Shown: positions 2,354 through 46,964 of the stretch, piece by piece
Position numbering within the stretch: the stretch's first letter is position 1
How the letters are laid out: every line of letters begins with the position of its first letter
Assembly: GCA_905178155.1 (NCBI GenBank)
Contig: CAJINV010000027.1
Span: forward strand, 272,656-336,655
Direction of reading: 5' to 3'
Length of the DNA: 64,000 bases
Source: Amoebophrya sp. A120
Lineage: Eukaryota > Protista > Dinoflagellata
Made by a program: the position numbers and the translations under genes
Notes under the pieces: generated by a model
The model's input: the letters and a program-made list of their open reading frames with translations, nothing else
Told to the model about the DNA's origin: nothing
Databases searched by the model: none

Positions 2354-2695
2354 TATCAAATGCAAATATGTCTGGGTCTGGAAATCTGTGATGTTGAATT
2401 GAGCGTGATTAAACTTGAAGCGCTTGCAGTGGCAGCCAGGCATTACAAGTTTTGGAGACGCCTGCTGATGCCTACTTACCACACATCGCAAACTGCGTTT
2501 TTGCATGACAAAACAAGCTGCTTGCGGCCGAAGCTGCTTGCGGCGACGGTGCAAAGGTTTTTTATGTGGTGCAGTCGGGTATGCATGACAAAACAAGCTC
2601 CTCTTTTGCTGCTCATGCAACACAGCTTTTCCAGGAATGCAAAACACGCATCACAAGTTCCACTTTTCCAGACCCAGACATTTTTGCATTTGATA
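2354..2695. mobile_element. Introner family A
   Basis: 30-bp TIR tatcaaatgcaaatatgtctgggtctggaa; perfect TSD caccc. Confidence 0.93.
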
Positions 2696-2719
2696 CACCC
2701 GGAGTACCAATCGTGGAAA

Positions 2720-5700
2720 ATGCGGGGCATCGGGAGCAGCATGACGAGTATGCTGCGCTATCCAAGAAAAAAACGTTTTTAGTGTAAAGTTGTGATGCGC
2801 AGCATGCAAGATGATTGCGTCTCTCATGCTTGGCATGCCTCGTAGGGTCCATTAAAGGGCGTTTTCACGTACTATCTGCGCATGCCAGGTTTTTACTATC
2901 ATGCCAGACAAATTTGTAATGCTGTTCCTCCAAAAAAGTTACACCTACAATGCTTTTTTCTTGGATATGCGCTGGCGCAACTCCAGCGCGACGCCCCTGC
3001 AGGCCCAACTGAAGGAGGCGCTAAACAACAATAACTGGGGCTGTAGCATATTGTGAGGAAAATGAATCCGCGAGAACCGTATTCGATTTGGCATTTGTGT
3101 TGCTGGATTTTTAATACCTGTCCTCCGTCCGCTGAATCAGCATGAGAGAAAAAATCTTAATCTGAATATGGAAACGAGGTGGATTTTTCCTTGTGATATG
3201 GCAACACGATTCTCTACGACATCGCCAACCAAAGCAACTATTATCCAGCGTAAAAAAACTGTATCCTAAAACTACCTGAGTTGTCATGCATATAATGCAG
3301 CAGGAGTCTTTCTATGCGGCTTTTCCGCCCAGAGATACAACTCTCGTCCAAGTGTGCTGCAGACGATTTTGTTATGCAACATGCTCTCGTCACAAGAAGC
3401 AAAAGATGGGGCTGTACTAGGGAATAAGCAGTGCGTGTGCGCTGTGTATCCAAAGTTGCCCTTTGTGAGTCCAAAAACCTCTGCACAATCAGTCCAGCAC
3501 ATCAAGCCGCATCTTGAATCGGGGTTGTTCTTGGAAAAATTTTTACGTAGGGGTCCGGCGAAAATCCTCCTCTGCACGATATGCGGGCGTTCCTTGGCCA
3601 AAAGACTGCCGGGCATCGTTTGCATTTCCAGCTGGAAAATGCTGAGGGACCCGGAAGGAGGGTTTGCAAATGTCCTCCTCCGCACCGTATGGGGGCTTTC
3701 CTGGGCCCAAAAACTGGGCGACGTTTGGATTTGAGGGGGGAAATGCTTAGCGACTCGGAAGGGGGGTTGCAAAAATGCTCCCCGGCAAGGTATGCGGCCC
3801 CTTTTTGGCCCAAAAAGTGGCCGGCCTTTCGTCTCCAGCTGCAAAGGGTTGGGCACTCGGAAGGGGAGGTTGCGAAAATCGTCCCCCGCACGTTCTGCGG
3901 GCTTCAGGCGGTTTGTACTGCTTTCCGAAACCTTTTGTGTCAAGGTCGAGTGCCCGATCATGAGGCCCGCCCGATGTTATGGTCAGCAATAACCGGCTGT
4001 CCATATTGGCCTGCAAGGCGAAACGCTCACCGGGTGAGCGTTTCGCCTAAGAAGTCCATATTGGGATCTTTCCCACCACAGCACACCGTCGTGCTTCTGG
4101 CTGTTTGTGCTGCCTTTTGAAACCTTTTTTTGCCAAGTTCGAGCGCCCTTTCGTGAGGCCCGCCCGACGCTATGATCGACACAAGCCGATTATCCATATG
4201 GACCCTCAAGGCGAAACGCTCACTCGGTGAGCGTTTCGCCTAAGAAGTCTATATTGGGATCTTTCCCACTACAGCATACCGTCGTGCTTCTGGCTTGTTG
4301 TTGCTGCTTTTTGAAACCTATTCTGCCACTTTCGAGCGCCCTTTCTTGGGGCCCGCCCGACGCTATGGTCGACACAGGCCGACTATCTATATGGGCCTCC
4401 AAGGCGAAACGCTCACCGGGTGAGCGTTTCGCCTAAGAAGTCTATATTCGGATCGTTCCCACTGCAGCATGCCGTCGTGCTTCTGGATATTTGTGCTGCT
4501 TTTTGAAACCTATTCTGCCAAGTTCGAGTGCCCTTTCGTGAGGCCCGCCCGACGCTATGGTCGACACAGGCCGATTATCTATATGGGCCTCCAAGGCGAA
4601 ACGCTCACCGGGTGAGCGTTTCGCCTAAGAAGTCTATATTGGGATCTTTCCCACTGCAGCATACCGTCGTGCTTCTGGGTATTTGTGCTGCTTTTTGAAA
4701 CTTTTTTTTGCCAAGTTCGAGTGCTCTTTCTTGAGGCCCGCCCGATGCTAAGGGCGACACAGGCCGATTATTCATATGGGCCTCCAAGCCGCATCTTGAC
4801 TCTGGGTTGTTCTTGGAAACATTTTTACGCAGGATAACCACCAGCTGCAGCCGATCTTGGAGGCTATCAACCAGGTATTTAGGGGAGAGTGCATAGACAA
4901 AATGATGATCCTGTCAAGTGCATTCTATGGGACGAGCTGCAAGACAAATTATTGACTTCATTTTTCTGTAACGCATGGACAGTAGCTCCGAACTTGTGTT
5001 TCTACTGCATAAAGATGTCAAGAGCAAGAAATTTGTATTGCATGAACACGGGTTGTTCCCACCTTCATATTATTCCCACCTCCTCATCATCAAAAACTCG
5101 TTTTCTCAGGCGTTGGCCGAGCGTGACGGACGACGATGGAGGCGTGTGTGGAAGGCGCTGAACTTATCACAGGAAGAAAGTCCTTCTCCTCCGTGGTATA
5201 CTAAATGCAAAACGGAAAAAATCTTTGTCGTGCTGATTTGTCATCTTCAGAAGCCCCACTTTGCGGGCGGCCCACTTGGCATCGGTCATTTAACGTGCCA
5301 TTCTGGGATTCGTAGCCTTCTCCTGTCGTGGAGAGCTGGCAAATAGGTACTAACCCCTTCGTCCCATGGCATCATGACAAAATGATTTGTGTACACAAAT
5401 TTCGCAGCAGAAGTTTCCGTTTGGGTAGTGGGGGGAGGATTTTTCATTTTGACAAAACTTGATCGAAATCATCTTGAAGCACGGCGAAAATCCGATGTTC
5501 GAGGAGAGCATGAAGGCAGACCAGTATCCTGTGTAAAAACGCCCCTACCCCAGAGTTGTCATGCAAAATGGCATCCCTGAAATGTTTCTTATGCACGACG
5601 CCATGTTGAGGAGCATTTTGTAATGCTATCTGGAAGTTTGTCATGCTGAAATGAGGACAAGGTAGCCAATTTGTCGTGCGGTTGCACTAGCTAAACACGT

Positions 5701-8700
5701 TTACACTACGATGCCAAACTTGTCATGCGTGACTGCCAGAATTTCTGGACTTGTGTTGCAAATTTCCCATCTTGACTTTGTCGTGGGGACGTTTCTACGC
5801 AGGATAACCAGTGGCGAGTAATCTACTTTCTCGACTGGCGCTTACGGAAATGAAAATCCCTTCTCTCCTATCAAATGTAAAAATGTCTGGGTCTGGATGA
5901 AGATTGCAACTTGTGATGCTGTCTCTGCATTATACAAAAATGTGTATTGCATGACCAGCAAGAGGGCTCCAGTTTGTGCTACATGGAGAGGGTATTTCTC
6001 ATGCGGGATAGGCATCAGAAAGCCCGCTAAAAATCTGTGATGCCAGGTTACGCATTACAGGCGTCATGTGTCATGTAAAATCTGCATGACATCCAGACCC
6101 AGACATTTTTACATTTGATATCTCCAAATTCAAAACACGAAGGATTTCTCTTGCTGGACTTGTATATAGCAATCAGCTTTGTGGTCGAGCGCCCGGGGAT
6201 ACTCAGCAAACCCGGTCGCCTCGGTCTGTTTAGGTGCATTGGGCAGTGCAGCTGTTGAGCCCCCTTAACCGGCTCGGTGTCTCCTAGTACTTTCCTTCTG
6301 TCATGCAAGAGAAATAAGCTACTTGTTTTATACGCATTTTTTACAAACCAACACATCTAAACAAATTTCCACTCAGAACAATATGGGGGGGGAGATTTTT
6401 TTTTCCTGCCACAGCGCTACCAGGAGAACCAGAAGGACGTCACTGCGGGGATCCGTGACAAGGCCAAAAAGATTATCCCTGTGTAAAAATGTTGTGGCCC
6501 TAGATTTGTCATGCATATTTCCACGCCGCTGCCCAGGACGCTTCTCATGCTCAGCTGCATGAGAAGCGTTGTGTTCTCGTGGTGTTGTGGAAAAATTTGT
6601 CATGCCTTATACAGGACGAATTGGTGAATTTGTGATGCGACTAGCATAGCCATTCTTGTTACTCAGGATAAAGATCCAGCAGTTGTTGCAGGACCCGGAC
6701 CTGCTGCGAAAGGAGCGGGCGGATGCGCGACAGATCGCGAACAAGCTGCAGCTATGCATTGCAAATATCGATCTGGGTCCGGAATAAAGGTGGAACTTGT
6801 AATGCTGCTCCTACATGCGTGCGAAATCTGTATTGCATGACCAACAAATTATGTCGTAGCCTGTTTCATCTAATCCGGACTGCGTACGAGAACGCGTTCT
6901 GGAAACTTGTCATGCTTGTCTACATTCGGAAGTGTTTTCATCATGCACAGTTCAGCATCACAAATCTCCAGACCCACAAATATTTGCAGTTGATAGCAGC
7001 CGCCCTCGATGTCAGGCGGCGGTGGCGGCGGGATGCCGCAAAGCGGCTTGGCTGCAGGCCCCGGGCCATATCGCAAGAAAAAACTGTTTCACTGTGAACT
7101 TGTGATGCATACAATGGAACACAGAAGTATTTGTCTTGCCACACATGCAAGAAAGTGGATTTTTAGCTGTGTTTTCCCTTAGGAAGCTTGCGTGGCAAAT
7201 TTTTTCTGTCACGTAGAACGAACTTGTCATGCAAAACCTGCAAAATCATCACAGTGAAACAGTTTTTTCGTACGATAGGCCAGGCTACGGAAATAATGCA
7301 GGTTCGAGCTACAACGACGGCTATGGCAACAGTGCGTCGGTGTCGTACGGCTACGGCCCGACGACCACGGGAAGTGGCCTCTACGGCACCACGCAAGAAC
7401 CGATGTCAGGAGGGAGACCAGTGGACCGACCAGACTACAGCTTTCGGGCTTACGACCGCGATTTTTTGGGCGCCGGCCGTCCGGAAACCACGACGTTTCA
7501 GTCTTCCTACGCCGCCTCTGGTGCGCCGCCGTCGCTCCAGGTACCACCACCTAGTTCGGCGTCCCGAGCATTGCGACGCGACGTTCCGGAACCAAATCCA
7601 GCAGAGCCGAGTACTTCTAGCGCGGGTAATTGTCTATGTCTACAAAACATATGCAAAAATTCAGCGGTGTGCGTTTTTGTCATGTGTGTCTTGTGTCAGG
7701 TGTATGTAGTTTGATAAATGTACTAGTCTTTGTCACTACGTCGCTGAAAGAGAGTAAAAATGACACGCATGATTGATAAAAATTTTCAGATTCGCGAAGA
7801 CGGGTTGTCCAGGTTTGCGGGTGTACAGAAACGGAAGCGGATTATCATGTGAGAAATATCATAGTTGCTGGCTTGCATTTTGATGTTGTGCATGCAATTT
7901 TGAATTACAAGTCTTCGCCTTCGCGAGGAAAAGATTTTAATTTCTCATGCAGTTCTACTCCGTCACCAATTTGTTTCTTCAATCTATAGGAAAGAACAAA
8001 CCTTTTGTGCTTGCTATTTTTTGTGCAGCATTTTACAAGCGTCTTTGATGACAAAATGTACTGTCGCACGCTGGCTTCTTTCTCCGCTATCCCAGCCGAT
8101 TGCTGCGCGCGGCAGACGGAAACGTGGAGGACGCGTGCAACAAATTTTTTGCCCAGGCCAACAACGAGCCCGAGCTCGAGGCGCCACGAAGTGCCCAGGA
8201 CCAGCGGGATTCGGGGCCAGCCTCTTCCGACGAAGACGAGGAATTGGACGAGATGCCGAGCGGTAACGACTCGTCAGAGCCGGACCATAGTCCGGAGGTC
8301 GGTCCGCGTCATTACGCACAGCGAAAATGTCTGGGTCTGCGAAAAATGGAGTTTGTCATGCTATGTTTCGATCACGCAAAATGTTGTATTGCATGAGCAG
8401 GGGCAAAAAATCTGTGAAACTAGAGCATACTAGCTTGACGAAAATCGCGGGTCATCATGTAAAATCTGCATGACAAACTCCTCCAATTTTCCAGACGCAG
8501 ACATATTTGCACTGCATTGTGGTCTCCAACCCCAGATGTCAGGACAAGTAATGCCACCGCAGCATACCAATGCTTCGCAACCAGCGACGTGGGACCAGCA
8601 ACAGCGGGCACAGCAAGCGGCCAATATGCATTGCAAATACAGCTAGGTCTGGAAATAGACTGCGGATTTGTGTCATGTAGCTCTTGGACCACAAAAATGG

Positions 8701-11700
8701 AAAAAGCAACACGGGTCTTGCAACGACTTCTCCAAGCCTTTTTGCGTAGCAACAAGTAGGCAGCTTTTGGCGGTCTTGCAACACAGATTTTTGTGTGCGC
8801 GTCCCGAGCAAGCATCGCAAATTCGCTTCTTGCCTGACCCAGAGATGTTTGCAATGAATAGGCAGCGTCCGGCAGCAGCCGCAGGTACCGATGGAGCAGC
8901 GGCATATGAAATGCAAATATGTCTGGGTCTGGGAGTTTCTAAACTTGTGATGCTGTGTCTGGATTCCAAGAAAATTTGTATTGCATGACCAGCAAGAGGA
9001 CTCCAGTTTGTGCTACGCGGACGAGAGGACATTTCTCATGCGGTGCTGGCATCACAAAGCCCTCGCAAAATCTGTGATGCTAGAGGATCCATCACAGACA
9101 TCACGGGTCATTCAAAATATGCATGACAAACCTGGCAATCTTCGAGACCCAGACATGTTTGCATTTGATACGGCAGCAGCCAGCGCAACAGGGGGCGAGC
9201 CGCCAGTTTTCCCAGCCGTCAGGGTCGCAGCAGTACGGTACCGCGCTGGATGCACAAACTGGTATCAAATGTAAAAATGTCTGGTTCTGGAAGGATGCAA
9301 CTTGTAATGCTATTTTTGGATTCTAAAAAAATCTGTGTTGCATGACAGGCAATAGGAGTCCAGTCTTTGCCACGTGGAGAGGGCATTTCTCATGCAGGAT
9401 ATGCATCAAGACGCACTCAGAAAATCTGTGATGCTAGGGCATAGATCACAGCCGTCATGGGTCATGTCAGACGTGCATGACAAACAAGGTCATGGCGCGG
9501 GGACAGAGTCCCCGCGGCTGCGACCTTGCGGCTAAGAAGGGCCACCCGCGGTGGCTTTTCTTGCCCATTATGCGGCAGGTTTTTTTTTTGCGACAACACG
9601 GGGTGGCTTGGCGCTCGTGGTGCCGGCGCCCCCCTGGAACAGTGCGCCTTTTTCTGCGCCCCTGGGCGGGGCGCCCCCCCCCAAAGGACTACCCACGACC
9701 AACCGAGGGCGCGGCCGTCCGGGAGGTTGTTCTCCCGAACCAGGGCGCGCGGGCCTGTTTCTGCGCCCCTGGGCGGGGCGCCCCCCCCAAAGGACTACCC
9801 AAGACCAACCGAGGGCGCGGCCAGCCATACCAGGGCGCGTGGACCTGTTTCTGCGCCCCTGGGCGGGGCGCCCCCCCCCCAAAGGACTACCCACGACCAA
9901 CCGAGGGCGCGGCCGTCCTGGAGGCTGTTCTCCCGAACCAGGGCGCGCGGGCCTGTTTCTGCGCCCCTGGGCGGGGCGCCCCCCCCAAAGGACTACCCAA
10001 GACCAACCGAGGGCGCGGCCTTACCAGGGCTCGTGGACCTGTTTCTGCGCCCCTGGGCGGGGCGCCCCCCCCAAAGGACTACCCACGACCAACCGAGGGC
10101 GCGGCCCTCCTGGAGCCTGTTCTCCCGAACCAGGGTGGGCGCGCGGACCTGTTTCTGCGCCCCTGGGCGGGGCGCCCCCCCCAAAGGACTACCCACGACC
10201 AACCGAGGGCGCGGCCTTCCTGGAGCCTGTTCTCCCGAACCAGGGTGGGCGCGCGGACCTGTTTCTGCGCCCCTGGGCGGGGCGCCCCCCCCAAAGGACT
10301 ACCCACCCACGACCATGCGAGGGGGGGCGCGGCCACCTTCCTGGAGCCTGTTTTCCCGAACCAGGGCGCACAGAACTGTTTCTGCGCCCCTGGGCGGGGC
10401 GCCCCCCCAACAGGACTACCCACGACCAAGTGAGGGGGGGCGCGGCCTTCCTGGGGGCTGTTAGTTCGCTTCGCACTCCCGAATCAGGCCGCGCGGACCT
10501 GTTTCTGCGCCCCTGGGCGGGGTGCCCCCCCCAATGAATAGGCAGCCAACCTTTGGCCGCCGGGGTCGGGCCTGACTCTTGAAAAGTGGCCCCCGGGGCC
10601 GGGTGTTCCTTTTCCGAAGTCAGGCGGGGGGCATATTTTGGGTTGTGCAGGAGGTTTTTCTTTTTGCCGGTTCGGGTCGTGTTTGATACCCCGGAACAGG
10701 GGTCGGAACATACTCCGCAACACACCCCAGAACACACCCCGAAACACACCTCAGACCATGCCCCGAAAGCCACTCTCCGAAAGTCAGGTCCGGGGTCGGA
10801 CCCGACTCCCTAAAAGTGACCTCCGGGGCCGGGTGTCACTTTTCCGGAGTCAGGTGTGGGGTATGTTTTGGGGGGTGCAGGACGTTTCTGCCGATTCAGG
10901 TCGTGATTGATACCCCGGAACATGGGTCGGAACATACCCCCGAACACCCCCCGAAAACTCATTTTTGGGCAGTTGCTGCAGTTCAAATAGTAATCTTCCA
11001 ATCTTCCAGACCCACACGCTTTTACACTTGATAACTGGTACGTATAGCGGATTCTCGCAGTCGCAGCAGCAAGCTCAGAGTCGTGCACCCTACAGCCAGT
11101 ACGGGCAGAATTTGGGTACTACCAATCCGCTGGCACAGAATCTCTCCATCGGCGGCTCGCAGGTTATCAAAATGAAAAGCGCAGCCCCGTCTCCGGACTC
11201 GTTTCAAATGTTTGCGCTGCAAAGTTTTCAAGTGGGCGGGCTTTGTCGTGTATGCTCGGAATAAAATTCCAGTTGCTACAATATGCAAGGCTTCCGGAAT
11301 ATTATCATTTAGGAAAATTTGCAATGCAAATGTGTCCACGTGCTTCGGTCGCGAGGGCAGTTTTTATTCTGATACAGGTGCAGCAAAATCAGCTGCCATA
11401 CAACTCGACGCAATCGGCCACACTACACCCCTCTGGTATGCAAGTACCCATGGGCCAATCGGGTCCGCAACAAGGCACTGGTATCGACTGCAAATATGTC
11501 TCGGTCTGGGTAAGAGCACGCGAACTTGTCATGCTGGGTATATAGCATGACAAAGCAATGTTTTATAGAGCATGAACGCATCACAAATCTTTCGGCTGTT
11601 GTTGCAAGGTGAGTCGTGTTTTGCATGACAAACTCCCTCTTCGAGCATGACAGAAAAAATGGTCACTCCTATTCAGGCATCACAAATCTTCTTATGCTTC

Positions 11701-14403: not shown

Positions 14404-17400
14404 ATGGCGCGTACATTTCTAATGCGGCTTTGCTGCTTATGCAAATTCGCCATCGCCGATTTTGACTTCGAAAGCCTGTTTGGCAACGTGGGACTTGAAT
14501 CGTGGGATAAATATGCAGCCAGCGACGCGAATGGCGACGACGCGAATGATCTCGCGGAAAAGTTGGAAGAATTCTCCAATGGTAGCTACGAGTACGAGAC
14601 CGTGAGATTAAGCTGGGACGGCATTTTGTTAGTCGACTGGAAAACACTCGCACACACAAGAAACGCACGCCGGCCCCACTTGCCTCGCTCGTTCTAGTGG
14701 TTCAATTTTCCCAATTCGAGCAAGCAAGCGACGCAGGGTCGCGTGCTCCGTTCGCATTCTGTTTTGAGATGCACGAAGAAGAATCAGCGCACTCTGCCCA
14801 TGAGTTCCACGAACGGCGCGCGGCGTGGCGTGGGCTCGTGAAATTTCTGGGACGAATCTCAGCCACAGTGATGGCGGCAATATTAGTTCTCAGCCCCAGG
14901 AGGCTCAGTCGTGTGGGCCATATCCAAAAAGGGTCGCTCGAAACCTAATTTAGCTTCTGCCGCTCGGGCTTGCAGAAGGAAATAGGATAAGCGACAGCAG
15001 CGCCCTGCGGTTTTGCACCTAGTAAAATGCCGGGAAACTGGCGGGGCCTTTTCTGTAAGATCTAAGACACGGCGGACCGTTTTGTCGGTCTTGCACTTTA
15101 AAACAGGCCACGTTGGCTTTCAGCCCCATCGCCTCCGCTATCCCGGTAACCCTAGCGAGGCCGCACTGACTTGGGAGAACACCACCGGGGGAATAGAATA
15201 AGAAAATAGCTATCGGCCAACATTCCGGTCCGCTGGGTTTTTCGTCGGGTTGTGGTATTTCAGGGGGGGAAAATCAGGCGCCGACTGGGGCTGTCGTGTT
15301 GCGTGTGTGCGAAGTCGCTTTCCATAGCCGCCAGATGCCGGGCGACGTACCGAATAGGGAACAGTTAGGCGACTACGACTTTGACGGCGACGGGGCTTTT
15401 GGGCTCTCAGAGATGAAGATCATGCACGACCTGAAGCTCGGCGACGCCAACGGAGTTGGTGAAGGCGTGGCGAAGCTCCTGTGCCCCAGCGATTGTGACG
15501 TGTCGAAGTACGACCTGGACGAGAACAACCACTATTCGCACACTGAGCTGAAGTTTCTTGCGAGGTCAATAAAAGACCAGGGCGGTGAGCTCCCAGACTG
15601 GAAGGGGTTTGTTGGACTTTGAACACACCTGCCACACTGAGTGCCTGAAGCTTCTAGCTGGCGAGATGCCTCGCAATCCCCCAGCGCTTTAACCCCTCAG
15701 CAGACAGGGCGAAAGCCTCGGGCTGCGTTGCATCCATCCCGTGGCGCCTCAGCGTTCAAGGCGCACCACCGCCATCATGCCATCAAGCTGGGCTCTGGAG
15801 GTACCTCAGACCCGCCATTCAGGTCTCGAGCCATTTCCGACCTCCCTCCACGTCGTCGCTGATGGATTTGATTCGGGACCGAGGTCCTGGGTAGAGGTTT
15901 TACTCAGGGCGGCGGCTCTGGATAAAGTACCTGCTCAGGATCTGTATACCCTGAAAGCAAGGACCCAGAGTGGGGCAGCCCACTCCGCGACGGCTACAGA
16001 TGGGAAGGTAGACCCAGATGACCGCCTGCCCATTCTGGGAAAGGTTTTTATTCAGGGCGGCGGTCCTGGATAAAGTTTGCACCCAGGGCGGCAGTCCTGC
16101 GGCTCAGGTCGCGAACAGGATCTGAACCCGTCTTCAATTCATCTGTCATTATTTGCATTTGTGGAACAGAGGACGGCTCGGGACCTCATAGAAGCTTCAG
16201 GCCTGCGTGGGGGGAGGGTTTCGATCGCATGACCGAAAAACTTTGACAAAGACGCGGCCAAGGTTGTGTATCCCGACCAGCTAACCAAAATCGACAGCGG
16301 CAAAGACTTTATAGACATCTTCGACACCGATACCGACGGCTGGTATTCCTTCCACGAGTTGAAGGCGATGCAACAATTTCCTAAGCACGGTCCGCAGCAC
16401 CTGAAAGAGTACTACGACATGGACGGCGACGGGGAACTTAGTCACTACGAAGTCAGGCTCGCAATGAGCAGGGCCGCGCATGTAACGGTCGGCGCCATCT
16501 ACAACGAGCAGGGCGGCGACGTTCATGCGGAACAACGTTCCGACTTGGAGCTGTTTACGAAGATTTCATCCTCGGGTGAAGACCACAAACTCGAACCAGA
16601 AGAGGCACGACTGGCGCTTTGGCACGAAGGTGAGAAATATGATCGGGCCGAGTACAACCATGAGCAGAACGAGCAGCTCGCTGAGCACGTAAAAGCGGGA
16701 GGACACAACTTAGCCTACCACGACATCATGAGTGACACGAATCACGGCCACCACAACCTCGCCCATGCAAAGTGGCAAAAAGTACACGACGTACTGCAAA
16801 TAAACGGCTACCTGTCGGAGAAGGCGTTCGAGCTGCGGGACCTGGATGGCGACAAGAAGATTAGCAGCAACGAGCTCAATATGATCGTGAGAAAAAACTG
16901 TCTCAGTCTCAACTTGTAATGCGCAACTTGTTCCTTCAGACAGTTTTTTGTCGTGCTCGACATGCAATCAAAGGAAACTCCGTACGTGTTTTCTCTTGCA
17001 TGTAAACAGTCACAGATTTTGCGTGTGATGCTAAGGAAATTTGTGTATCTGAAACTGCAAAGGTCTGAGACAGAGAACGTGTTTTCGTACGATACCCAAA
17101 GTCGCCGGCTTGCTGGGAAACGATCTACAAACGAAAGGCAAGATAGCCGTCGACAAAGCAAAGGTTTTGCTCCAGAGCATGAGCGCGACGAGCGACAACC
17201 CTTTGAAGCAGTGTACGGACGAAACAGGGTTCTGCGACTTCAACGGCGACGGATCTTTGACGGCTGAAGAAATCAAGCTTGCGAAACTCTGGGACGACAG
17301 TCCGCCCACTGCAAAAGTGAGTACGATTCTGGGAGATATCTTCCCCGACGCCACGGATTCGGAGATCAAAGGAGCTGACTTTGACGGTGACGGTGTATGG

Positions 17401-29423: not shown

Positions 29424-32400
29424 ATGCGAGGAAAATGGTTCTTCACCGCTCCGTGCGTTTGCACCAGCACCTCTTTCACACTTAAATGCTGTTTCTTGCT
29501 CCTTGCGGCATCCTGTGCCGCGGCAGTGGGGTCCGGTTTGCGCACCGCCATACTGCAGAGCTATTTTCCAGAACAACACAGGTCCGAGGAGCGGTTGTAC
29601 AGCTTGGTGGAGCGCGAAAATACAGCAGATACCGCAACCGCTGACACGACTTCCGGTGCTGCGCACGCTAGCTTCGCAAAACCAGGCGCAGCTCGACTCG
29701 ACGCTATCCTGTGGACAGATTCTATCATTTTTCCCCTCAGCTGCAACAGAGATTTAACAAGCATTCTCGAAAAGCTCGGGAATATACGTGGTCCTGCGAG
29801 ATGTGTATCAGCGTAAGCATGTGCTTCTTCTGCAGCAAATCTTGCAGTGTAGCAACCTTTGCATCTGTGCGGCGGGAGAGGATAGTTCTTCCACAGCATA
29901 CAATAATCTCTCTGTTTCGTCGACAATTACCGAAGAGCGCAGCAAGCAAACAGGACCAAGGATCAAGAAACGGAGCCAGCAACATCCTTCTTCACCTCCG
30001 CATCCACAAAACGCCGACGGCATTTTCAAACAATTGCGCGAAACCTTGGTGTCAGCTACTTCTTCCGCCCCCTCTTCGACAGCCCCGTGCTGTATGAGAA
30101 ATTGCAGCGCGGCAACGACTGGGCAAGCGCCTTGCTCTTCCAGCGGTTCTCAGGATACTACGACCAGCTCCTGTATGTGCACGAGTCAGCGCATCTCGAA
30201 AAAGATGTCGTGGAAGCGCTTCTGCGGCACTACCACCAAAGGAGAGAAGAGCCAGCGAGCTCAGCATCCGCGACCAAGGAAACAGTGGTGCAAGACACAG
30301 CGACGGCGGGAAGAATACTGCTAATCACAGCACCTACAGCTCCGGGTCGTCGTGCTACAGGAGATACAGCGGTCGCTACGCACCAAACAATCGCGATTCT
30401 GTCTACTGCGAGTGACATCGCGGAGGACGGCCGGACACTCCGCGGACGCGACGCTCTGATGGAGTTTTGGACGAACGTTTTTCTGGACCGCCACTGCCTA
30501 GACCTGACGGTTGCGAGCTGCGCGCATAGGCAAGGAGGGGGGGTTGAGTCGAGTAGTTGTCGCTTGTACAAGCTTGTCTCGAATTTCGTACCATCCCGAA
30601 TAAAGTGGAACGTAGCTTGAAGATGATGAAATGTGCATGACAAATCGCAATGTTTGACTTAACAAGCCCCTCCTTATTGCATAGTACGAAGGAGTGCCGC
30701 CCAGGGTTCCGAGTATTGGACGCTGACGGAAGCGTCTGGCTTTGTCGAGGTGCACGAACTGGCATTGCCAGACCCGCAAGACGCTCCGGTCACAGCACTG
30801 GACCTGGACCAGATTCAGTTCGTCGGAACAGTCGGCAGCGCAAACAAATCCCCGCTTTTCACTGGCGGTCCTCCTCGCGGTCCAATCGCAACTGCTACTT
30901 CAACAGCGGACGGTGTGCACGATTCGCCGAGCGGTGACACGCCTGACTCAGGCGTGCCCGCGGCACGAAAACTGAAGATCGCGGTCGTGCAGACGTACTT
31001 CCCGCGCTCTCATACGAAACGTGCCGAATTGTATTCCTGGACCGAAAGAGAACTTCTTGCCGAGCCACTGTACGAAGAGCATCTCGCGCAAGAAGGATCT
31101 CAAGGAAGCAGCCGAACCCGTTCCTTGTTCAAGGATTCTCGAGTACTGCAGACCGCGGAAAACCTGAAAAGCAGGTTTGATAAATCAGAGGGGGCAACAA
31201 CTTCTTCACCCAGCGGCCACGATCACTCACCCAGTGCTGCGACACAGCGCAGTCAGCTCTTCTTCCCTCTGTACGTGAAGGCCGTTGCCAAGATCAACCA
31301 AGCGTACTGTGTATGAAATGAACCGTGCCTCGATAGTAAATCCTTCGGAGCTGCACAGCAGTGCAACATCGCTATGCTCGGTGGGCGGACAAGGTCGTCT
31401 ATGTGGCCACGGTTCATTTTCATGCGAAAAACGACACAACTACGCCTACATCTTCCGCACAAAGTTCGAAGCGCGCGAGCCACTCTACGTCCAACGTGGC
31501 AAATTCGCGACCGCTGGTCACTTTCTGGATGGAGTGCAGAAAGAACGTCCGCATCGAGCGTACTCCTGGGGGCGAATTCTTCTCGTGTGGCGGTATTTGC
31601 CGTTTTACGACTACGTGCTCATCGCGGACCTGGACGCAGCATTCGTTCGCCCGCAAACAGTATCAAAGCACAACAGCGCATTAGCAGGCACTCCCGGGGC
31701 TATGGCACTTCCTCGGTGACGACGCTGAACAAGGCATGACATTTTGTATTCACTCTTGTGTACAATCTACGGGACACGAAAATTTTAGCTGGCTGTGCGT
31801 TCTGTGCATTCCTATAAATCCGTATAGAAACTTTGCTGTACTTCTGGGACCCAAGTGTGCGCTGGCTCTTGCAGACACCGGAAAAGAACGTGGATCGCCC
31901 GTCCAGACCAAGCGACCCGAGCCCCGCAAACCTGGTGTTCGAAAATCAGCCACTGAAATTCGTCGGCTTTTTCGGCACACAACTGCAGGCCGGCGTTTTC
32001 ATGATGCGGGGCGGCACGCTGGTAGCAGACGGTAACGAAGAATGGGGCTCGGAGTTTCTCATGAGGATGTACCTGCACCCAATGTGCTTCGACGGTGGAC
32101 TGTGTGAGCAGACTTGCGCGAATGCGTGGCTGCTCGCAGACCTGGGCAACTGCTGCGGACAAGCGGGCGAACACAGGGGCAGCGGACACCAGCAAATCCC
32201 TTCGTGCGGCGACCCAGCGCTCGACGGAATCCAAACGGGCTTCAAAGCTGCTGACGAAAGTGGTGCTCCGGTCGAACGTCCAGAAACTTCTGTAAACGAA
32301 CCTGTCCCGAGCGCAGCCACGAATAGCAACACTCCGGAAGACGAAAATGCCAGTTTCGCTTACATCAGGAACGGGCCGCACAGCATCCGCCACTTTGTTT

Positions 32401-32639
32401 TTGGACAACACTATCAACCCGGCGCACGAGCCCACAGCCGAGCCGCGCGAGTTCTTCCTGTTGGTACGATGCAGGCTATCGAAATGCGGACGAGACTGCG
32501 AATTGTCAGCGAAACGAATGGCGCGGTCCGGTTCTCGACCGGCTTTCCGAAGGAGCCCGGCGCCACGGAAGGCGATACGCAGTATACATTCCGAGACGAC
32601 ATTCTGGACAGGCCGTTGATGTACCACACCGCTGTATGA
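29424..32639 (+). CDS. Secretory-pathway protein with a GT34 (GMA12/MNN10 galactosyl/mannosyltransferase)-like domain, intron-containing
   Basis: Signal-like N-terminus; motifs KINQAYCEKRHNY, YSWGRILLV...YDYVLIADLDAAF (DxD), QLQAGVFMMR, WGSEFL, CEQ. Gene boundaries are uncertain. Confidence 0.55.
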
Positions 32640-32785
32640 GATTTGAAAAGCGCTGCGTACTTGACATCGTCAGGCATGCAGTCTCGCTGTAGTTCACCCT
32701 CGTTTATTATTTACTCAAACAAGATCTTTTTGCCAGACATAGTTCTTGACAAGATGAAAAAGTCCTGCAGTCAAGTAGGAAGCAG

Positions 32786-34144
32786 GTGTATTTTTTCCTT
32801 TCATGCGACGGCAGGGGCGAAACCTTCAAAAACGTAGTCTTTACAACCCTCCTTGATATGACGGCAAAAGATGAAGTTACAGGCAAAGCAGAGATTCATC
32901 GTGCTGCCCAACAACCGTTGTTGAAACCAGCATCCCGGCCAGAGCCCGAGTTCCTCTGGGAATGTCTCACTCCCGGCACGGCAAGCTCAGGAGAGCGAGC
33001 TGCTTCAACGCACACGTCGCTTTTTAACCGGGTAATGGACGCTTTGGGAGCCTACTATGGATACCAGTACGACTTTCAACACCACTATGGAGTCAGCCCC
33101 GAGAACACAAAAGGGACCATCGAAGGCCGCAACTACAAGGAACTACGGGGATTCTCGCCGAGCTTCGCCGAGACGATGACGGAGATATTCCCCGATGCGC
33201 CTTTTCGCCGGGGGATACACACAACGCCCAAAGACCTTGCGATCATAGTTCCTACTTTCAGCACGAAGACAGTAGGAGGACCCGAACACGCAACAAACTC
33301 GCCTGAACTTCCCAGGAAGTCACCTGTCCACTCCGCCCTGAATTTCGCCGCGTGTTACCAGGCCTACAGCTCCTACCATCGTGTCGGCGTGTTTGCAGTC
33401 GGACATCCCCTAGCTGCGGAAAGCATCTTGACCGCAAGTCATGCGCTTGGTGCGCTTCTGTATCGGCGTTTGCCTTCCTTTGTTCTACCAGCCCGAGGCG
33501 GCAAGTCCTACGGACCCGGCGGAACCGCTACAGAAATCGCAGTTCGCGAATACCACCGCGGCCGCAGCAACCAGTTCGTCGTGAAGCGGTCAAGGCCTCG
33601 CTCCAGGCCATCAGAGACAGATTTTCCGCACGCGGCCGGCCAAGAATACGAAGACGGGTTCAATTCCTTTTTCGAGCCAAGCATGGGCGAGGGCGACGGA
33701 GAAACAGTGACAACCTCGCGGTTTTGGTCCGCGTTCGTGATCTGGAATGCGGATGATGGGGCGGAAGAAGATGGACATGACGTACCGAGCACTGAAACTG
33801 CAATCGCGCAAACGGAAGCAGCTGTAAAAACCAGTTTATCGTCCTCAAACTCAACCGCCACACCGAGTTACAAATGGGCCAAAGCGACTGTCCTCCATGT
33901 CCGGGAGCTGCTGTCCTACGGTTGGCGTAGGAATGATCAGTTTTCCATCGACTACTTAAACATTCCCACGCGGGTTTTCATCGTATCCAGCAATGCAAAT
34001 TTGCGCCAGCATCTCCTAATACTTCACCTGCTGGAAAGGCACGTAGGCTGTACGATAGAGAAACTCTCAACTGCACTAGCAGTATGTAATTTCTCCGAAG
34101 AATTGGAACTAGATCGAATAGCAGGTAATGGCGCTTTCGCGTAA
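32786..34144 (+). CDS. 452-aa ORF of unknown function, probably further exon(s) of the GT34-like gene
   Basis: Long ORF on the cluster strand, separated from the previous exon by ~200 bp of AT-richer intron-like sequence. Confidence 0.5.
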   Translation: MYFFLSCDGRGETFKNVVFTTLLDMTAKDEVTGKAEIHRAAQQPLLKPASRPEPEFLWECLTPGTASSGERAASTHTSLFNRVMDALGAYYGYQYDFQHHYGVSPENTKGTIEGRNYKELRGFSPSFAETMTEIFPDAPFRRGIHTTPKDLAIIVPTFSTKTVGGPEHATNSPELPRKSPVHSALNFAACYQAYSSYHRVGVFAVGHPLAAESILTASHALGALLYRRLPSFVLPARGGKSYGPGGTATEIAVREYHRGRSNQFVVKRSRPRSRPSETDFPHAAGQEYEDGFNSFFEPSMGEGDGETVTTSRFWSAFVIWNADDGAEEDGHDVPSTETAIAQTEAAVKTSLSSSNSTATPSYKWAKATVLHVRELLSYGWRRNDQFSIDYLNIPTRVFIVSSNANLRQHLLILHLLERHVGCTIEKLSTALAVCNFSEELELDRIAGNGAFA

Positions 34145-35475: not shown

Positions 35476-37910
35476 ATGCTAGTGCAACCTCTCAGCAACC
35501 TCGAGCCACGGGAACGAGTTGCGAATAATAACGAACCATTTTTCAATTGCCGTGCTGAGGTGTTGCGAACCGGAGCACAGCTCGAATCGGCTTCGCTGTG
35601 GGTATGCTGTTCTGCTCTGAGTAGTTTCGTGTGTGCTCCTTCGCAAATGATTTTCTCGTTTCGGACTTTCAACTCTTTCTCCTCTTGCGTTTCTACTTCC
35701 TGTTAATCGTTTTAGTTGTGGTGAGAAAAAAAGATCCCAGTTAATACGTAGTCACCAGTGCGTTCCGACCCTGTCGTTGGGTCTACCCGCACAAGTTTCG
35801 TCTAAACGCGGTCTTTTTCTCGAGCCCCGCTCGTGTGTTTCGTTATGCAAGTGCTACATGCTGCAACCGGGTCTGACTTCTCCACCTGCCTGCACGTCGT
35901 GGAAACTCCGGCGGGTGGTGCGTATATCGCGTATGGCACGGCGTTTGGGAAGATTGCGCTACAACAACTTTCCCGCGGAAAGCAGCTTGCCGAAGGAGGC
36001 AGTGGCGAGCGACCCGTTGAAGAGCTGGAGACGGGCAGGGCGGAACAACATGAACTCCAGAATTACCTGGGGTTCCCTGCAGTTCACGTCTGGATCGACA
36101 GTACGGCACCTGCTGCACCACGTACTGGTAGTAATGAGGATCCAGAAGCCGTAGCGCCTGGCCTCCGCGTGTGTGCGGTGTTTCAGTACGTCGGGAGCCA
36201 CCATCTCATTCGGGCATGGGAGCTTTATCCAGGGCGAGTTGCCGGGACCTCCAGTACCGGGGAGAAGCTGCAGCAGGTACGGACTGCTGTTCAATTTGTA
36301 CTGCACGCAGCCGATATGCGAGCAATCTCTTTTACGAATGATGGGGCGCTGCTACTCCTGAACAACAAATATGTTGGTGCTGAAATCAGAATATGAATAT
36401 AACAGGTTCCACCTCCTGTGCCAAAGCTCTCCGTTCGACCATCAGTAGAAGCTTGGGTCGTGTCCAGCAGCTCGACCTTTCACGTTCGCGAAAGCCGACC
36501 GCTCCCGAACGAAATTTATCCTGTTGAAAATATTTTCGATATTTGAATTGTCATTAGGAAATTAGAACAGAAAATATGAACTACCCAGAATTCTCTGCCG
36601 TGGAGATCGGCTCTGGGATTGAAAATATTTCAACAACATAAACGGTTGTACAACCTGTGGTCGCAGCTACCCGAGAATACGACGATTCGAGGAGCCGAGG
36701 AAGAAGCGTTTTTCTGTGCCACGAACGGTCACTTGCTGCTCTACGGGAAGCAGCAGACGCGGGTGATTCGGCTACGAGAACTCTGCACCTTCCTCTTGCC
36801 CCCGACATCGTCGGCCGGAGGCGAAGGTGAAGGCCGCGACACGAATAGTACAGTAGAAGTGGTCTCGCATATTACAATGAATAATGTCCCCTCCGCATTT
36901 CAACACCGGAAATCTGTGCTGCAGATTTGTGGTCACAAATCCGCTTTGTCATGGTAGAAGGCAAAAGATGCGGACTGTAGTGCTGGCTAGCGTGGGAAAG
37001 CCTTGCATCTTCAGCACGACACGAGGCAACTGGAAGTGGGAAACAGCATGACAAATTACCTGCAATGCAGGCCGCAGCTGCGTCTCTTGGCATTCTAGCA
37101 ATAGAAATCGGCTTGTGTACTCAAATACAGCAACACAAATTTCGTTTCCGATATGGGGAGGGGGCATTTTTCCCTTTGATATCGCAGCTTGGCTACACGA
37201 TTCCGGATTTCTACCCCCTGATCCGCAACGCGAACGAAAACTTCAGTGCCTGGCCCCTGCAATTTCACGACGGCGCCGTACTTTTTGTGGAAAAGCGCGG
37301 TGAGGATGACGAGCGAACGGAAATTGCAGTTGGCCCACCGGACGTCAGAATCCACGTGCTGCCGCTGCACGAGAACGAGTCATGCCCGGCCGGACCAGGA
37401 GAAGTCCATCACGAGTACCGTGTGCGCAAGCGCGTTACGGCGATGGCGCTTGTCGGATCTGGAAGTGCAGATCATGACCAGCCACAGCGGGTTGTCGTTG
37501 TCTCCGATTACCGCGAGGTGCAGGTATTCGACCAGGCTGCGAGCCGAAGCGCAGAGCAGCCAGCTATCGCTCCGCCAGTAATCCGACTGCCCGACGACTT
37601 TGTCGCCATGGACACGCAAGGCAGCATGCGAGGGCAACACAACGGTCAGGAAATGGTATACCTCCTCACCCGCGGGTGCCGCGTGTTCGAGCTCGATATC
37701 AACTCTGCGGCCACTGGATACACGGACTCCAGCAACAACACCATGTCCGAGTTTTCTTTCGTCCTGCATCAGGATAGCATCGCTGATACTTCGGGCACAC
37801 ATTTGAAAAGATTGACATTCGATCTGCCATCGCAACTTTTTTGCACTAAGGAGCTAGCAGTGATCAAGACTGATCAGGGACTCATAGCACTACAGAAAAT
37901 AACACACTAG
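35476..37910 (+). CDS. Hypothetical protein, possible beta-propeller (WD40-like), intron-containing
   Basis: Exons 35833-36396, 36619-36869 and 37187-37910 are in frame across the tcgca-TSD introner; beta-strand-rich motifs (IAYGTAFGKI, MRAISFTNDGALLL, VTAMALV). Confidence 0.45.
36870..37181. mobile_element. Introner family C
   Basis: Right TIR ggggagggggcatttttccctttgata; perfect TSD tcgca. Confidence 0.85.
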
Positions 37911-38247
37911 CGAAGAAGATCTTTAAAGCCCTCAATAAGTGTGTCCCGTAATGATAAACACACAACGCAGATTGCTTTTCCTTTTCGCGCCGTCCTGGAT
38001 TTCCAATTTGATCTTATGTTCAGGTTTTCTCCTGTTACAGCAACATCTTACTTCCTCCACTTTATGACCAGCGACCTTCTGTGAACGTACTACACACAAA
38101 CTATTTCGGCATACAGACACTATTCATCCCAAACCATGATTTAGACCGCAGTTATAGCATTCGTAGTTTTTCTTGAAGCCCGCATCTGTCTCTTAGTGAA
38201 GTTTCTCTTTCTTTGACAGCATAACTAGCACACATCCCGTCTTGAAA

Positions 38248-40992
38248 ATGTCAGCGACCGCGAACACTTTTCCAACCAGGCATAAGAAAAAGCCTGGCGC
38301 GGCTACGGTGAAGCCCGGTACGCTCGCATTTGCGGGTAGTGCCTCCAGCGAGCACTATGAATACGACCTGCACAGCGGCATTGTCATTCAGAGGAGTTTG
38401 AAAAACATGTATCCTAAGTGAAAATGGCCCCCCCGCGTAGTCAAGATGACAGCTTTGCTACACAAGCCAAGGACTTTTCGCTGTTGTGCATGGCAACTTT
38501 GAGCTTCTTCTAGTGCAGGGGCATGTCAAATCAATCTTCTAATGATCTCGATTCGAGAAAAACAAGATCCCAGATAGCGATAGCAAATGTTGCATCAGAA
38601 ACATTTGTAGAAATGCACGTTTGCATAAATATCAAAGCTGGGGTAGGAACGTTTTTGCACAGGACTACATGGCGGCCATTCTTATCGAACCGGAGGGAGG
38701 AAAGCAGCGAATTTTCATGTTCGACTCCGTGGAGCTTCTTGACAAATTCGTCGCCGCATGTACTGCATGTCAAGCTGGCAATAAGAATGCCGAGCAGAAA
38801 CCGGAGATGCAAGAACCGGCACCGGGTCGTACACCGAGTGGTGCGGCGAGCAATAGCGAACCAGAACAACCGGGGGAAGACGCGAAGGCGTCATCGAGAA
38901 TAACGACAGCAGATCAGAAACTACCCCAGCAAGAAGCACCGCTACAAGAAGAGGACGCGTGGTCCAAGCGGATCGCGGCTTTTCTCGAGGGCGATGAGGA
39001 CAACGAGTACCTGCAGAAAATTCTAGATGCGCACGGGGCGCTTTTCGAACAGTATGTCCTCGAGGAGCGATCACACACACCCGCCCAGTTCCTCCGGCAC
39101 GTACTGTCTACCATGACAAGCGACGCTAGCATAAACCAACAGTTCGCCCTGCCGCAGGCGCGACCGCAACCAAGCGCATTCGTAGCGTCCGCAGGACCTG
39201 AGCGCGACTTCTCCCGCTACCTGAACGCCTTCGCAACGGAGGATGGTACAGTTGGCCTCGACAGCGATATTCGCCAAGCACTGCTCGAAGAGAATCCGCC
39301 ACTGCAGAAACTGCACCGACTGTACGTAAACGACCGGTACAGCGATGACGATTTTTGGAACGAGTTTTGCATATCAACGTGAAAATTGCTCCGACCCTCA
39401 GAACAAGTTGATGGCACAGTGGTGATTGTCGATCCAAAGTTGTCATGCCTAGGTGGACTCAAGGATTTGTCAGGGGCATACAGCGCTGTGTCAATGAATC
39501 CACGGTGGAGACAATTTTTCTCGTAATACCCAACGCAATCAAACTACTTCCTCCTGTTGCAGGGAAAGAACGATGTGCGTCGCCGACACAACCCGAAATT
39601 CGATCCCTACATTCCACAGGAGCTGAAGTTTGACCAGGAGAGTAATCCGTCTGGCTTCGCCCACCTCAACGTCGCGGGGACTTCGTCGTCTGGTGCACGT
39701 AACGCCGCGAATGTATTACCTACTCAGCACGAACTGACCCTCGACGCCAGCTCCGCGCCGTCGCGAAGAAAAATGCAACAGCTGCTCGGCGAAATGGACG
39801 ATCCAAATGCGGCGGGTGTGGTGCAAAAATTGGACGATGATAGCAACCAGAAGTGGCGCCTGACGCAGTGGAATAACAACGACCAAAAGATGCTCGCATA
39901 TGGCACAGAAAGTTTTCTTCATCTCAGTGAATGACCATGAGCCCAAATTCCACGAACATTTTGCAACCCATTATGTATCTGTCTTGCACGACAATGCACT
40001 GAATTCATTTTTTCAAGTACCGGCCGGGCACCAAGTAACACGGCCATGCACGATCTCGCAGTGACCCCTCGTCGTGACTCTCTCGAAAAGTCCAGTTTGC
40101 ACGCGTGATGGTAAAAATCTGCTTGCGTGCCCTCTGTCTTCTCGGCCAAGGACTCGGGAACCTGGTTTGATGAAAACGGTTTCCATAGGATTTCCTGGGC
40201 GCCGAACTCGGAAAAGCACACACATCAAGGACGCGGATTTTGCATCGCGTAAACCAGCTATCAGCAAGGGCGCTGCCGCATCTGCTGCCGAGCCCGGCAT
40301 CTGGCAAGGAACCTAGCGTGCGATCCAGTAGCGATGACGAGAACGAGATGGAAGAAATGGTAGAACTATCGCGAAAAAAACGGCGCCTCGCAGATCCGTC
40401 GGGCTACGCGACCGAAACTGGTGTAGCACGATCGGACGGCACAAACAACAACCCAAGCGACGCCAGTTTGAGCACCGACCCCAGGAAGCCGGCACCGAAG
40501 TCCTTTGACGGAAACACGCTGAGTCCGATTGAGCACGAGGTGCTCAAAACTATAGCAAATCGCAGGTACCAGCTTCCTCAGGACAAGTGGCCCAGCAGTG
40601 TCAGCATGCGCAGCATTCGCTTTCCGGACCACCCGCAGGTGCAGAACGCGTCGAAGCACCTCTTGACCAAGAAGGACAAAGACAAAACCGCGGATCAGGG
40701 GCACCAGACGAAAGCTGTGCAGCCGCCCGCCATCCGAATCAGCAAAAACGATTTCAGGCTGCTGGAGCAGCAGCTTCAGTTATTCTACGCACCCATGAGC
40801 ACCTTGAAGCAGAGGCAGCTCATCTTGCGCAAGTTGGATATGGCGATCGACGAGCTGCAGCAAGAACGGCTCGGAGCGAATGAGAGGTACAGGCGCACCA
40901 GTACTAACAACGCCTGTCCGCAGCATTTTTTAAACCAGGTCGAACACGCGAAAAAACACCTCGAGCGCATGCTGAATGCGATTGATCCGTGA
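38248..40992 (+). CDS. TFB1: TFIIH p62 subunit (PH domain plus two BSD domains)
   Basis: PH-like N-terminus (KKKPGAATV...RIFMFDS). BSD-like LDSDIRQALLEENPPLQKLHRLYVNDRYSDDDFWNEFCTQSNYF rebuilt across the 39372-39528 introner; later LTQWNNNDQKML. Confidence 0.65.
38410..38666. mobile_element. Introner family B
   Basis: Degenerate B TIRs; perfect TSD acatg. Confidence 0.85.
39372..39528. mobile_element. Old introner
   Basis: tatcaacgtgaaaattgctcc / ggagacaatttttctcgtaata; TSD decayed, but 5-bp geometry restores EFC|TQSNYF. Confidence 0.7.
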
Positions 40993-46953: not shown

Positions 46954-46964
46954 AATTCCCCCCA
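46954..46964 (-). other. Polypurine tract
   Basis: Minus strand tggggggaatt directly before the 3' LTR. Confidence 0.75.

Follow-up and report, generated by a model that had tools for sequence, protein, structure and literature searches.

Introduction

Introners of Amoebophrya A120 are introns of about 240 nt in co-oriented genes, with ends other than GT/AG (Farhat et al. 2021, PMC7789003). In the parts of that paper considered here their inverted repeat begins with TAT and ends with at least three A, direct repeats of 3-5 nt accompany them, and they are split into 1,954 families. The same parts report putative transposases in A25 only and not in A120, report that U1 snRNA was not detected, rule out general mobilisation by transposases, and state both the spread and the removal of introners as open questions. 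In the portion of Gozashti et al. 2025 used here (PMC12130899), the A120 families are classed as TIR DNA transposons of superfamily Unknown. Subterminal repeats offer a second comparison. In Arabidopsis Emigrant/Lemi1 the transposase binds the subterminal repeats of the MITE cooperatively, and such repeats are cited in the relevant portion of the same paper for Sleeping Beauty, pogo, CACTA and hAT elements also (PMC1636448).

We analysed a stretch of 64,000 nucleotides from Amoebophrya sp. A120 (the window). Its elements match the published A120 introners: as described in the consulted parts of PMC7789003, they have a TAT inverted repeat with at least three A about 10 nt in, direct repeats at the exon/intron borders, a size near 240 nt, co-oriented host genes and non-GT/AG ends, and their family sizes are those given in PMC12130899 (about 150, 209, 250-260, 278, 305 and 320 bp). 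What distinguishes them is an internal site, arranged in pairs, which the families of the window share; no internal motif is named in the portion of PMC7789003 considered or in part of the A120 rows of supplementary file 8 of PMC12130899. The paired-site geometry common to all nine large families is new here. Our literature searches found no report of the motif, which figures S19-S25 of PMC7789003, a paper used in part, may show, and none on an introner internal motif with transposase binding in dinoflagellates; searches with the literal 9-mers gave only unrelated literature among the matches listed.

Results

Elements of the window

The elements and related introns of the window are as follows (strand in brackets where assigned; "joint" means that a contig joint was seen).

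1380..1596, truncated element, right part (left limit approximate), sites 1426, 1459, 1508
1670..1988, element, 320-bp family, 4 sites, TSD 4/5
2354..2695, element, 5 sites all minus, TIR 23/24, TSD CACCC 5/5
2759..2967, element, 209-bp family, pair at 30/61
3049..3198, element, 2 sites
3242..4836, element ends around 193-bp tandem array
5525..5806 (+), 280-bp asymmetric family, 6 sites all plus
5869..6120, element, TIR 24/24, TSD 5/5, 6 sites, apparently nested in older element
6473..6670, shortened element, 5 sites
6753..6995, element, 6 sites, one within TIR
7069..7277, 209-bp family, pair at 30/61
8313..8518, element, 2 sites
8625..8860, element, 3 sites
8905..9170, 262-bp family, 6 sites, pair at 39/70
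9263..11033, 262-bp-type element split by satellites, TSD ACTGG
11165..11374, intron element, 1 site
11482..11746, intron element, 7 sites
11797..11949, intron element, motif inside left TIR (TAT-GCATTACAA)
12637..12910, intron element, 4 sites all minus
13169..13360, TIR-poor intron, 4 exact copies, length by contig arithmetic, exact ends inferred
13415..13696 (+), 280-bp family, 4 sites all plus
16880..17094, intron element, 2 sites
17396..17653, outer intron of nested pair, 5 sites
17657..17965 (+), 280-bp family, nested in 4-nt tail of intron 17396..17653
18009..18433, intron element, TIR 16/24, TSD 4/5, contains 18265
18489..18765 (+), 280-bp family, pair at 30/61
18947..19269, intron element, 2 sites
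19337..19542, intron element, 1 site
19597..19790, intron element, 4 sites
19848..20167, 320-bp family, 5 sites
20412..20749, intron element, then putative 2-nt exon 20754-20755
20757..21019, 262-bp family, 6 sites, pairs at both ends
21059..21321, 262-bp family, 5 sites
21810..22181 (-), 280-bp family, reversed
22213..22471, element, left TIR lost, 4 sites, boundaries by reading frame only
22776..23035, intron element, 3 sites
26315..26485, site-free old element, ends now GT-AG
26552..26683, site-free old element, ends now GT-AG
26813..27079, intron element, 5 sites, joint
27140..27314, intron element, 3 sites, joint
27388..27666 (-), 280-bp family, reversed, 6 sites all minus, joint
27726..27981, intron element, 5 sites, joint
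28031..28316 (+), 280-bp family, forward, joint, same gene as reversed copy 27388..27666
28429..28719, intron element, 3 sites, joint
28754..28982, non-canonical intron, no internal site, joint
29705..29900, old intron element, 1 site
30527..30683, old intron element, TIR 15/24, contains 30635
31312..31424, old intron element, no site, by reading frame
31661..31816, old intron element, no site
32635..32805, non-canonical (GT..AC) intron, no site, joint
36517..36640, non-canonical intron, no site, joint sets cut at -1/+4
36870..37181, 312-bp family, 5 sites, joint
38410..38666 (-), 280-bp family, reversed, 2 sites
39372..39528, old intron element, TIR 20/24, TSD 1/5, one site (39440)
39899..40192, old non-canonical intron, 1 site, joint sets cut at -1/+4

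The elements have the traits of MITEs: they are short (110-430 bp), have TIRs and a TSD, lack coding capacity and occur in many copies, with 10-92 per family in the window and about 0.5 Mb of partly overlapping loci. Families said in the earlier note to have different TIRs carry related ones, all variants of one consensus, TATCN6AAA (terminal matrix T.89 A.95 T.97, then A.93 A.89 A.91 at positions 11-13). In elements detected without using the TSD, the duplication was 5 bp in 265 of 383 and 6 bp in one, compared with direct repeats of 3-5 nt in the part of PMC7789003 considered. The TA..TA termini of IS3EU/GingerRoot are shared by the window elements, but those elements usually have a 6-bp TSD according to the part of PMC10045372 used. 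Target sites showed no sequence preference beyond mild GC richness. No transposase ORF was found in three long TIR-bounded elements and no transposase family among 52 of 127 long ORFs of the loci, both samples being a small part of the genome.

In place of genome-wide counts we used 160 loci from one second assembly, of the same or a different strain, after removing 3 of 163 that came from other records. Since the pattern by which these loci were picked requires a pair spaced 31-33 bp, we tested spacing and decay on the window and on 208 unselected neighbours (164 where clustered).

An 11-bp site concentrated in the elements

The 9-mer reported earlier, TTGTNATGC, is real, and every position at which it had been noticed is a match. 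The window holds 78 exact matches, against 2.84 +/- 1.94 expected from 100 dinucleotide shuffles, and T occupies the N position in only one of them; the fuller form is an 11-bp site, AYYTGTVWTGC. All but two of the matches (76/78) lie within 110-430 bp TAT...ATA elements with 5-bp target duplications: 52 delimited elements contain 70, and those at 1428, 1510, 3281, 3369, 9302 and 9475 belong to one truncated and two satellite-interrupted elements. The matches at 24206 and 41957 are outside elements. Exact-match density is 4.65 per kb in genic elements, 0.07 in exons and 0 in the Gypsy element and the satellites, in line with the rarity noted by eye, and a search of viral contigs gave no match. 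The motif is also common to all large families, as first proposed.

Some details of that proposal changed. The sites at 2440, 2503, 2583 and 2648, described as lying in both orientations, are all on the minus strand. Occurrence in introns without recognisable TIRs holds for two cases only, 13169-13360 (TIR 7/24 ungapped, four exact copies of the 9-mer) and 22213-22471 (left TIR lost, two exact copies). The elements around 18265 (TIR 16/24, TSD 4/5) and 30635 (TIR 15/24) do have TIRs, and the supposedly very degenerate intron around 39440 has a TIR of 20/24 after gapping.

Sites are paired three helical turns apart

In each of the nine large families the sites form direct pairs 31-33 bp apart, or three helical turns (19 pairs in total), usually 30 or about 40 bp from the element end. 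Before any selection by pattern, the window showed this spacing in 30 of 72 cases of adjacent sites on the same strand, and in the 208 unselected neighbours 158 of 365 adjacent sites were 30-34 bp apart compared with 8.5% on permutation (maximum 12.3%). Near the ends the sites of the window point inward (left half 57+/24-, right half 32+/52-, p 4e-5), and they spread through the whole interior beyond the end-proximal zones. An outward-oriented site lies inside the TIR at position 3 in 41 ends of the 208 neighbours; TIR positions 3-14 are the best-scoring outward copy, a score of 6 being exceeded by only 10% of ends. Like subterminal repeats, the sites are thus repeated, oriented to the element ends and related to the TIR. 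The relation of repeated motifs to part of the TIR and their direct and reverse orientation recall Emigrant/Lemi1; in contrast to what is described there (PMC1636448, in part), the window sites occur in 31-33 bp pairs throughout the element, recur in families whose spacers are unrelated, and lie in elements that are spliced out.

The sites could instead be passive leftovers of duplications within a single ancestral element that play no part in binding, and the shared TIR consensus means that families may share ancestry. This is very unlikely, as pair length is kept although the spacer sequences are unrelated (33% identical between families) and the core changes five times more slowly than spacers on internal branches.

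Orientation and folding

The sites lack the traits of an RNA-level splicing signal. They show no strand bias relative to the transcript (58/54 in the window; 364 sense and 345 antisense in the larger set), and 7 of 40 introns have none. Motif orientation follows the element and not the transcript: the 280-bp family is skipped in both orientations within one gene.

The earlier note also proposed that sense and antisense copies pair in the pre-mRNA, fold the intron and bring its ends together. Some inward-facing copies are indeed predicted to pair and extend the stem, as in 19848 and 20757, but these amount to 22 of 112 sites, and 13 of the 39 elements with at least two sites have a single orientation, which largely refutes the idea. 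The TIRs alone give a predicted terminal stem in 38 of 40 introns, and a fixed 31-33 nt spacing of direct copies would be useless for pairing. We therefore hold out little prospect for this explanation.

Separately, the first T (intron +2 U) seemed better conserved at the 5' than the 3' end in the window (39/40 versus 28/40). This asymmetry is not claimed because it was not replicated in 161 strand-called, mostly young elements (154 versus 152).

Removal is probably measured from the element ends

Contigs that we guess to be RNA skip the elements, with at least 13 element joints in four contig sets from one sample, and contig gaps (306/306 and 994/994) correspond to element removal; the elements thus behave as A120 introners, being removed, in these probable-RNA contigs, with non-GT/AG ends. 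Cutting occurs 1 nt ahead of TAT and 4 nt beyond ATA, a rule (-1/+4) obeyed by 12 of the 13 listed joints, whereas splice sites are variable relative to the hairpin in the part of PMC7789003 considered. What is lost is the element and exactly 5 further nt, and no dinucleotides are fixed. Together with the nested intron and the putative 2-nt exon, the rule indicates that removal is measured from the element ends. Euglenid nonconventional introns and the MITE-derived introns of Fritillaria are likewise transposon-derived with non-canonical ends, joined by a TIR stem at a fixed offset, but they have another terminal consensus and offset, and the part of PMC11282704 used mentions no paired internal motif. 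A 2026 raw RNA run with the same species label gave no exon cover; only 96 of its reads fitted in part, most of them on one TIR with the motif next to it, and these were kept out of the evidence.

The motif as a needed mark for removal, another suggestion of the earlier note, does not hold, since three non-canonical introns without any site (28754, 32635 and 36517) are skipped in contigs. Of its overall interpretation, a shared conserved site resembling a protein-binding site stands and most of the splicing reading falls.

Removal of the element plus exactly 5 nt, and the guessed nature of the skipping runs, would also suit a site-binding protein that cuts elements from DNA in one life stage, like the eliminated sequences of ciliates. 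We regard this as the most improbable alternative: DNA contigs are continuous through elements (11050-15638, 16900-19679 and 28182-31000), the same runs skip two ordinary GT-AG introns, and the 4+1 join always lies in transcript direction, while a symmetric DNA cut would be expected, once replicated, to yield both 4+1 and 1+4.

Conservation and decay with age

Across copies the motif is far better conserved than the interiors, as had been noticed (core 87-96%, spacer 70-91%). The statement that it outlasts TIR decay is, as a rule, reversed: 16 of 40 genic introns lack an exact 9-mer and 7 of 40 any matrix match, with TIR arms that still match at 14-20 of 24. Site density tracks TSD identity in the window (rho 0.59, n=40) and in the second-assembly neighbours (rho 0.34, n=208). 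The core/spacer ratio of changes is 0.19 on internal branches, which represent transposing lineages, and 0.51 (0.44-0.59) on terminal branches; conservation while transposing and erosion after insertion are what subterminal transposase-binding repeats would show. Matching for base and CpG left the terminal ratio at about 0.5, not 1, and a CpG effect does not explain the core/spacer gap.

As the TSD decays, changes per site rise by 0.030 in the core and by 0.045 in the spacers. The motif had been taken for more than a decaying transposase site; it largely decays with the element, the core/spacer ratio of age increments being 0.65 with an interval of 0.23-1.37, on a TSD clock of 5 nt that is noisy and with the oldest copies falling out of family alignments. 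The core increment exceeds zero (0.010-0.050), and the terminal 3 nt, which were used in element detection, are flat with age. Columns without internal change give age increments of 0.033 in the core and 0.036 in the spacer. The wide interval leaves room for partial host constraint, and the residual terminal ratio can be explained by sparse copy sampling or by host selection.

Discussion

Pairing three turns apart and fading with age suggest that the motif is likely the grip of a transposition enzyme and not a splicing signal. From the sequence patterns we consider it probable that the paired motif is the double-stranded DNA binding site of one shared transposase that copies all families. A protein dimer would bind both sites of a pair on one helix face, and once bound may help to assemble the cutting complex on the element ends. 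New copies would arise only from copies with intact sites, which would account for a core that stays alike from family to family but wears away once a copy has inserted. The paired ends probably guide intron removal, for which the motif is not required. We counted against the transposase reading that no transposase or autonomous element was found in the elements and ORFs scanned, the terminal ratio of about 0.5 and the interior-wide sites. The two TIR-poor elements (13169 and 22213), which retain four sites each, were also counted against it.

A host or domesticated DNA-binding protein might instead, or in addition, use the paired sites on DNA, marking young introns during transcription and aiding their removal. 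If it recognised double-stranded DNA, orientation would again not matter; on terminal branches, too, the core changes only about half as fast as the spacers; and 13169-13360, with four exact sites, is removed despite its poor TIR. The lack of a reported A120 transposase and of detectable U1 snRNA (PMC7789003, in part) also fits, as does the placement of 238 of 248 elements within reading frames of at least 90 codons, compared with 76% of random positions. Against this, site-free introns are skipped, site density drops with TSD decay, and the core accumulates changes with age while the terminal nucleotides, used in detection, do not. We judge a host protein in this role unlikely; partial host use of the sites alongside transposition is possible.

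Returning to the shared transposase, the fact that all families have the paired site, the TIR consensus and the 5-bp duplication in common suggests a single mobilising protein, in contrast with the case against transposase mobilisation in the part of PMC7789003 considered here, and the shared paired site is a defined bait for finding that protein. Removal measured from the element ends makes exact re-annotation possible and the splicing route directly testable. More speculatively, and with rather low expectation, a transposase-derived host protein on the 31-33 bp pairs may load a U1-free splicing machine onto new elements; a ruler, on this equally doubtful extension, would place the cuts 1 nt ahead of the terminal stem and 4 nt beyond it, and the sites would become dispensable with age. 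If true, elements newly inserted into coding exons would be harmless at once, and the mechanism would account for the massive intron gain as well as for why no transposase has been recognised.

Distribution of the motif and make-up of the elements

The 9-mer TTGTNATGC has 78 matches in the window where 2.84 would be expected, and no match lies past 41965. The elements that host it are short, run from TAT(C) to (G)ATA and have a 5-bp target duplication (TSD) on either side, a layout that fits the account of the Amoebophrya A120 introners in PMC7789003; by this resemblance the DNA is probably from Amoebophrya. We delimited 52 elements, 40 of them genic (from 11165 onward) and 12 upstream ones set by their ends alone. 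These hold 70 of the 78 matches, six more lie in three truncated or interrupted elements and two lie outside. Matches to AYYTGTVWTGC, the consensus of the iterated 11-bp matrix (termed sites), number 11.6 per kb within genic elements, against 0.27 in exonic DNA and none in the Gypsy element. There are about 40 elements in 14.8 kb of exon and almost none in 8.7 kb of intergenic DNA (13720-15320, 23650-26220 and 43054-45590). At metagenome loci, 238 of 248 element junctions fall within long ORFs, versus 76% for random positions. Such a concentration in coding exons is unusual for a transposon. Other features of the window are:

45595-55966: LTR retroelement whose minus strand holds gag-like, reverse transcriptase/RNase H and integrase frames; it contains neither the motif nor an introner
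3901-4788 and 9647-10534: tandem arrays (193 bp; about 90-110 bp) enclosed by element ends 3242-4836 and 9263-11033
16233-23646: gene for a secreted-looking multi EF-hand protein, interrupted by about 15 element introns; the C terminus has a hydrophobic stretch

Geometry of the paired sites

Of the 72 adjacent same-strand sites in the window, 30 show a spacing of 31-33 bp. The first site usually faces inward at 30-32 or 38-43 bp from the element end. A search pattern taken from this geometry led to 163 metagenome loci, 160 of them of one assembly and with the same families as the window. They yielded 383 elements with a perfect 5-bp TSD in 265 and a 6-bp one in 1, old copies being under-sampled since the detector regained 24 of the 40 window introns. 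Among the 208 neighbours (elements at these loci that the search pattern had not matched), 158 of 365 spacings fall at 30-34 bp versus 8.5% by permutation, copies of one family being non-independent in such counts; a site lies within the terminal inverted repeat (TIR) at 41 of their ends. Pairs of this kind occur in 9 of 9 family consensus maps, up to three per family, and their spacers, the DNA between paired sites, are 33% identical between families. At about 10.5 bp per turn of B-DNA, 31-33 bp amounts to three turns, a spacing that suggests a protein sitting on one face of the double helix. Families 2 and 7 carry a second geometry, with back-to-back sites 15 bp apart and then a direct site 18 bp further.

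Strand, conservation and decay of the motif

The earlier note had read the 9-mer as a maintained signal, such as a mark for intron removal or sense/antisense folding units. Relative to the transcript, the window's sites split 58 to 54 between sense and antisense; in 161 strand-called elements outside it the split is 364 to 345. In the 280-bp family all sites run in one direction, insertion occurs in either orientation and both orientations are skipped within one gene. Pairing with an opposite copy is predicted for only 22 of 112 sites, which argues against folding.

The constraint on the motif is real, its core being 87-96% identical to consensus across copies versus 70-91% for spacers. The core-to-spacer ratio of change rates is 0.19 on internal branches of the family trees, which passed through transposition, and 0.51 (0.44-0.59) on the terminal branches of 164 unselected copies. 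Between perfect and decayed TSD, changes per site rise by 0.030 (0.010-0.050) in the core and by 0.045 in spacers (ratio 0.65, 0.23-1.37), and another estimate came out similar; at columns without internal change the rises are 0.033 and 0.036. Since the core gains changes as the TSD decays, it erodes after insertion. Drawing tens of copies from a far larger family would be expected to bring the terminal ratio below 1, but the value also leaves room for host selection on the core as its source.

That the 9-mer outlasts TIR decay, as had been proposed, fails as a rule: 7 of 40 introns have no site and still match 14-20 of 24 TIR positions. A weak remnant appears at lowered threshold in only one of these seven, and three are non-canonical introns with an observed joint, a contig junction skipping the intron. 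Site density drops with TSD decay in the window introns (rho 0.59, n=40) and, in the 208 neighbours, from 1.87 per 100 nt where the TSD matches at 5/5 to 0.8-1.0 where at most 2/5 still match. Positions 18265 and 30635, thought to lie in introns without recognisable TIR, and the very degenerate 39440 are all within elements with recognisable TIRs. A motif without TIR does describe two elements, 13169-13360 and 22213-22471.

Elements as introns and the cut rule

Contigs of four runs of one sample, guessed to be RNA, skip the elements at 13 joints and also skip two ordinary GT-AG introns (among the 15 of 23 joints listed). DNA contigs pass through the elements without break. The elements are introns. 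At 12 of the 13 element joints the cuts fit positions 1 nt ahead of TAT and 4 nt past ATA (the -1/+4 rule), and two joints fix this rule uniquely; the joint that departs from it ends in canonical AG. The rule gives two contig gaps exactly, 306 nt over 3 introns and 994 nt over 12, with the left end of one element placed with the contig's help. Applying it opens reading frames, and a 2-nt exon inferred between two adjacent elements (20754-20755) agrees with the 994-nt gap. In a nested pair (17395-17971), element 17657-17965 lies inside the 4-nt tail of 17396-17653, and taking out the two according to the rule recovers an EF-hand loop, which implies ordered or joint removal.

A terminal stem is predicted for 38 of the 40 genic introns. 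The first T of the TIR is kept at 39 of 40 5' ends versus 28 of 40 3' ends, like the invariant +2 U; this excess was not reproduced among younger elements elsewhere. Two GT-AG introns (26315-26485 and 26552-26683) retain TIR remnants and TAT at +2, from which old elements appear to become canonical introns. In a 2026 RNA run with the same species label, 77 reads carry the TIR of 21059-21093 and then the motif, and exons go uncovered, a hint of the same family in another isolate or of an abundant unspliced transcript.

Proposed mechanism

Most likely, one putative transposase or its DNA-binding partner would bind the paired sites and a related TIR site, cut at TAT/ATA and insert with a 5-bp stagger. 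In Emigrant/Lemi1, cooperative binding of transposase to the subterminal repeats of the MITE has been established (PMC1636448). Removal from the message would likely be measured from the terminal stem, by analogy with what PMC11282704 proposes for euglenid introns. The TA..TA ends recall IS3EU/GingerRoot, an assignment we dropped because the duplications of these are usually 6 bp (PMC10045372) and here 5 bp. No transposase was found in three long TIR-bounded elements or in 52 of 127 long locus ORFs scanned, and PMC7789003 reports none in A120; this absence is the main gap of the transposase reading.

The A120 introners are already in the literature, catalogued as TIR transposons of superfamily Unknown (PMC12130899); neither the internal motif nor its pairing nor a fixed cut rule turned up in the running text of the available literature. 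The paired motif is a real and apparently undescribed feature of a known system, and is best read as a set of transposase grips and not as a new splicing signal.
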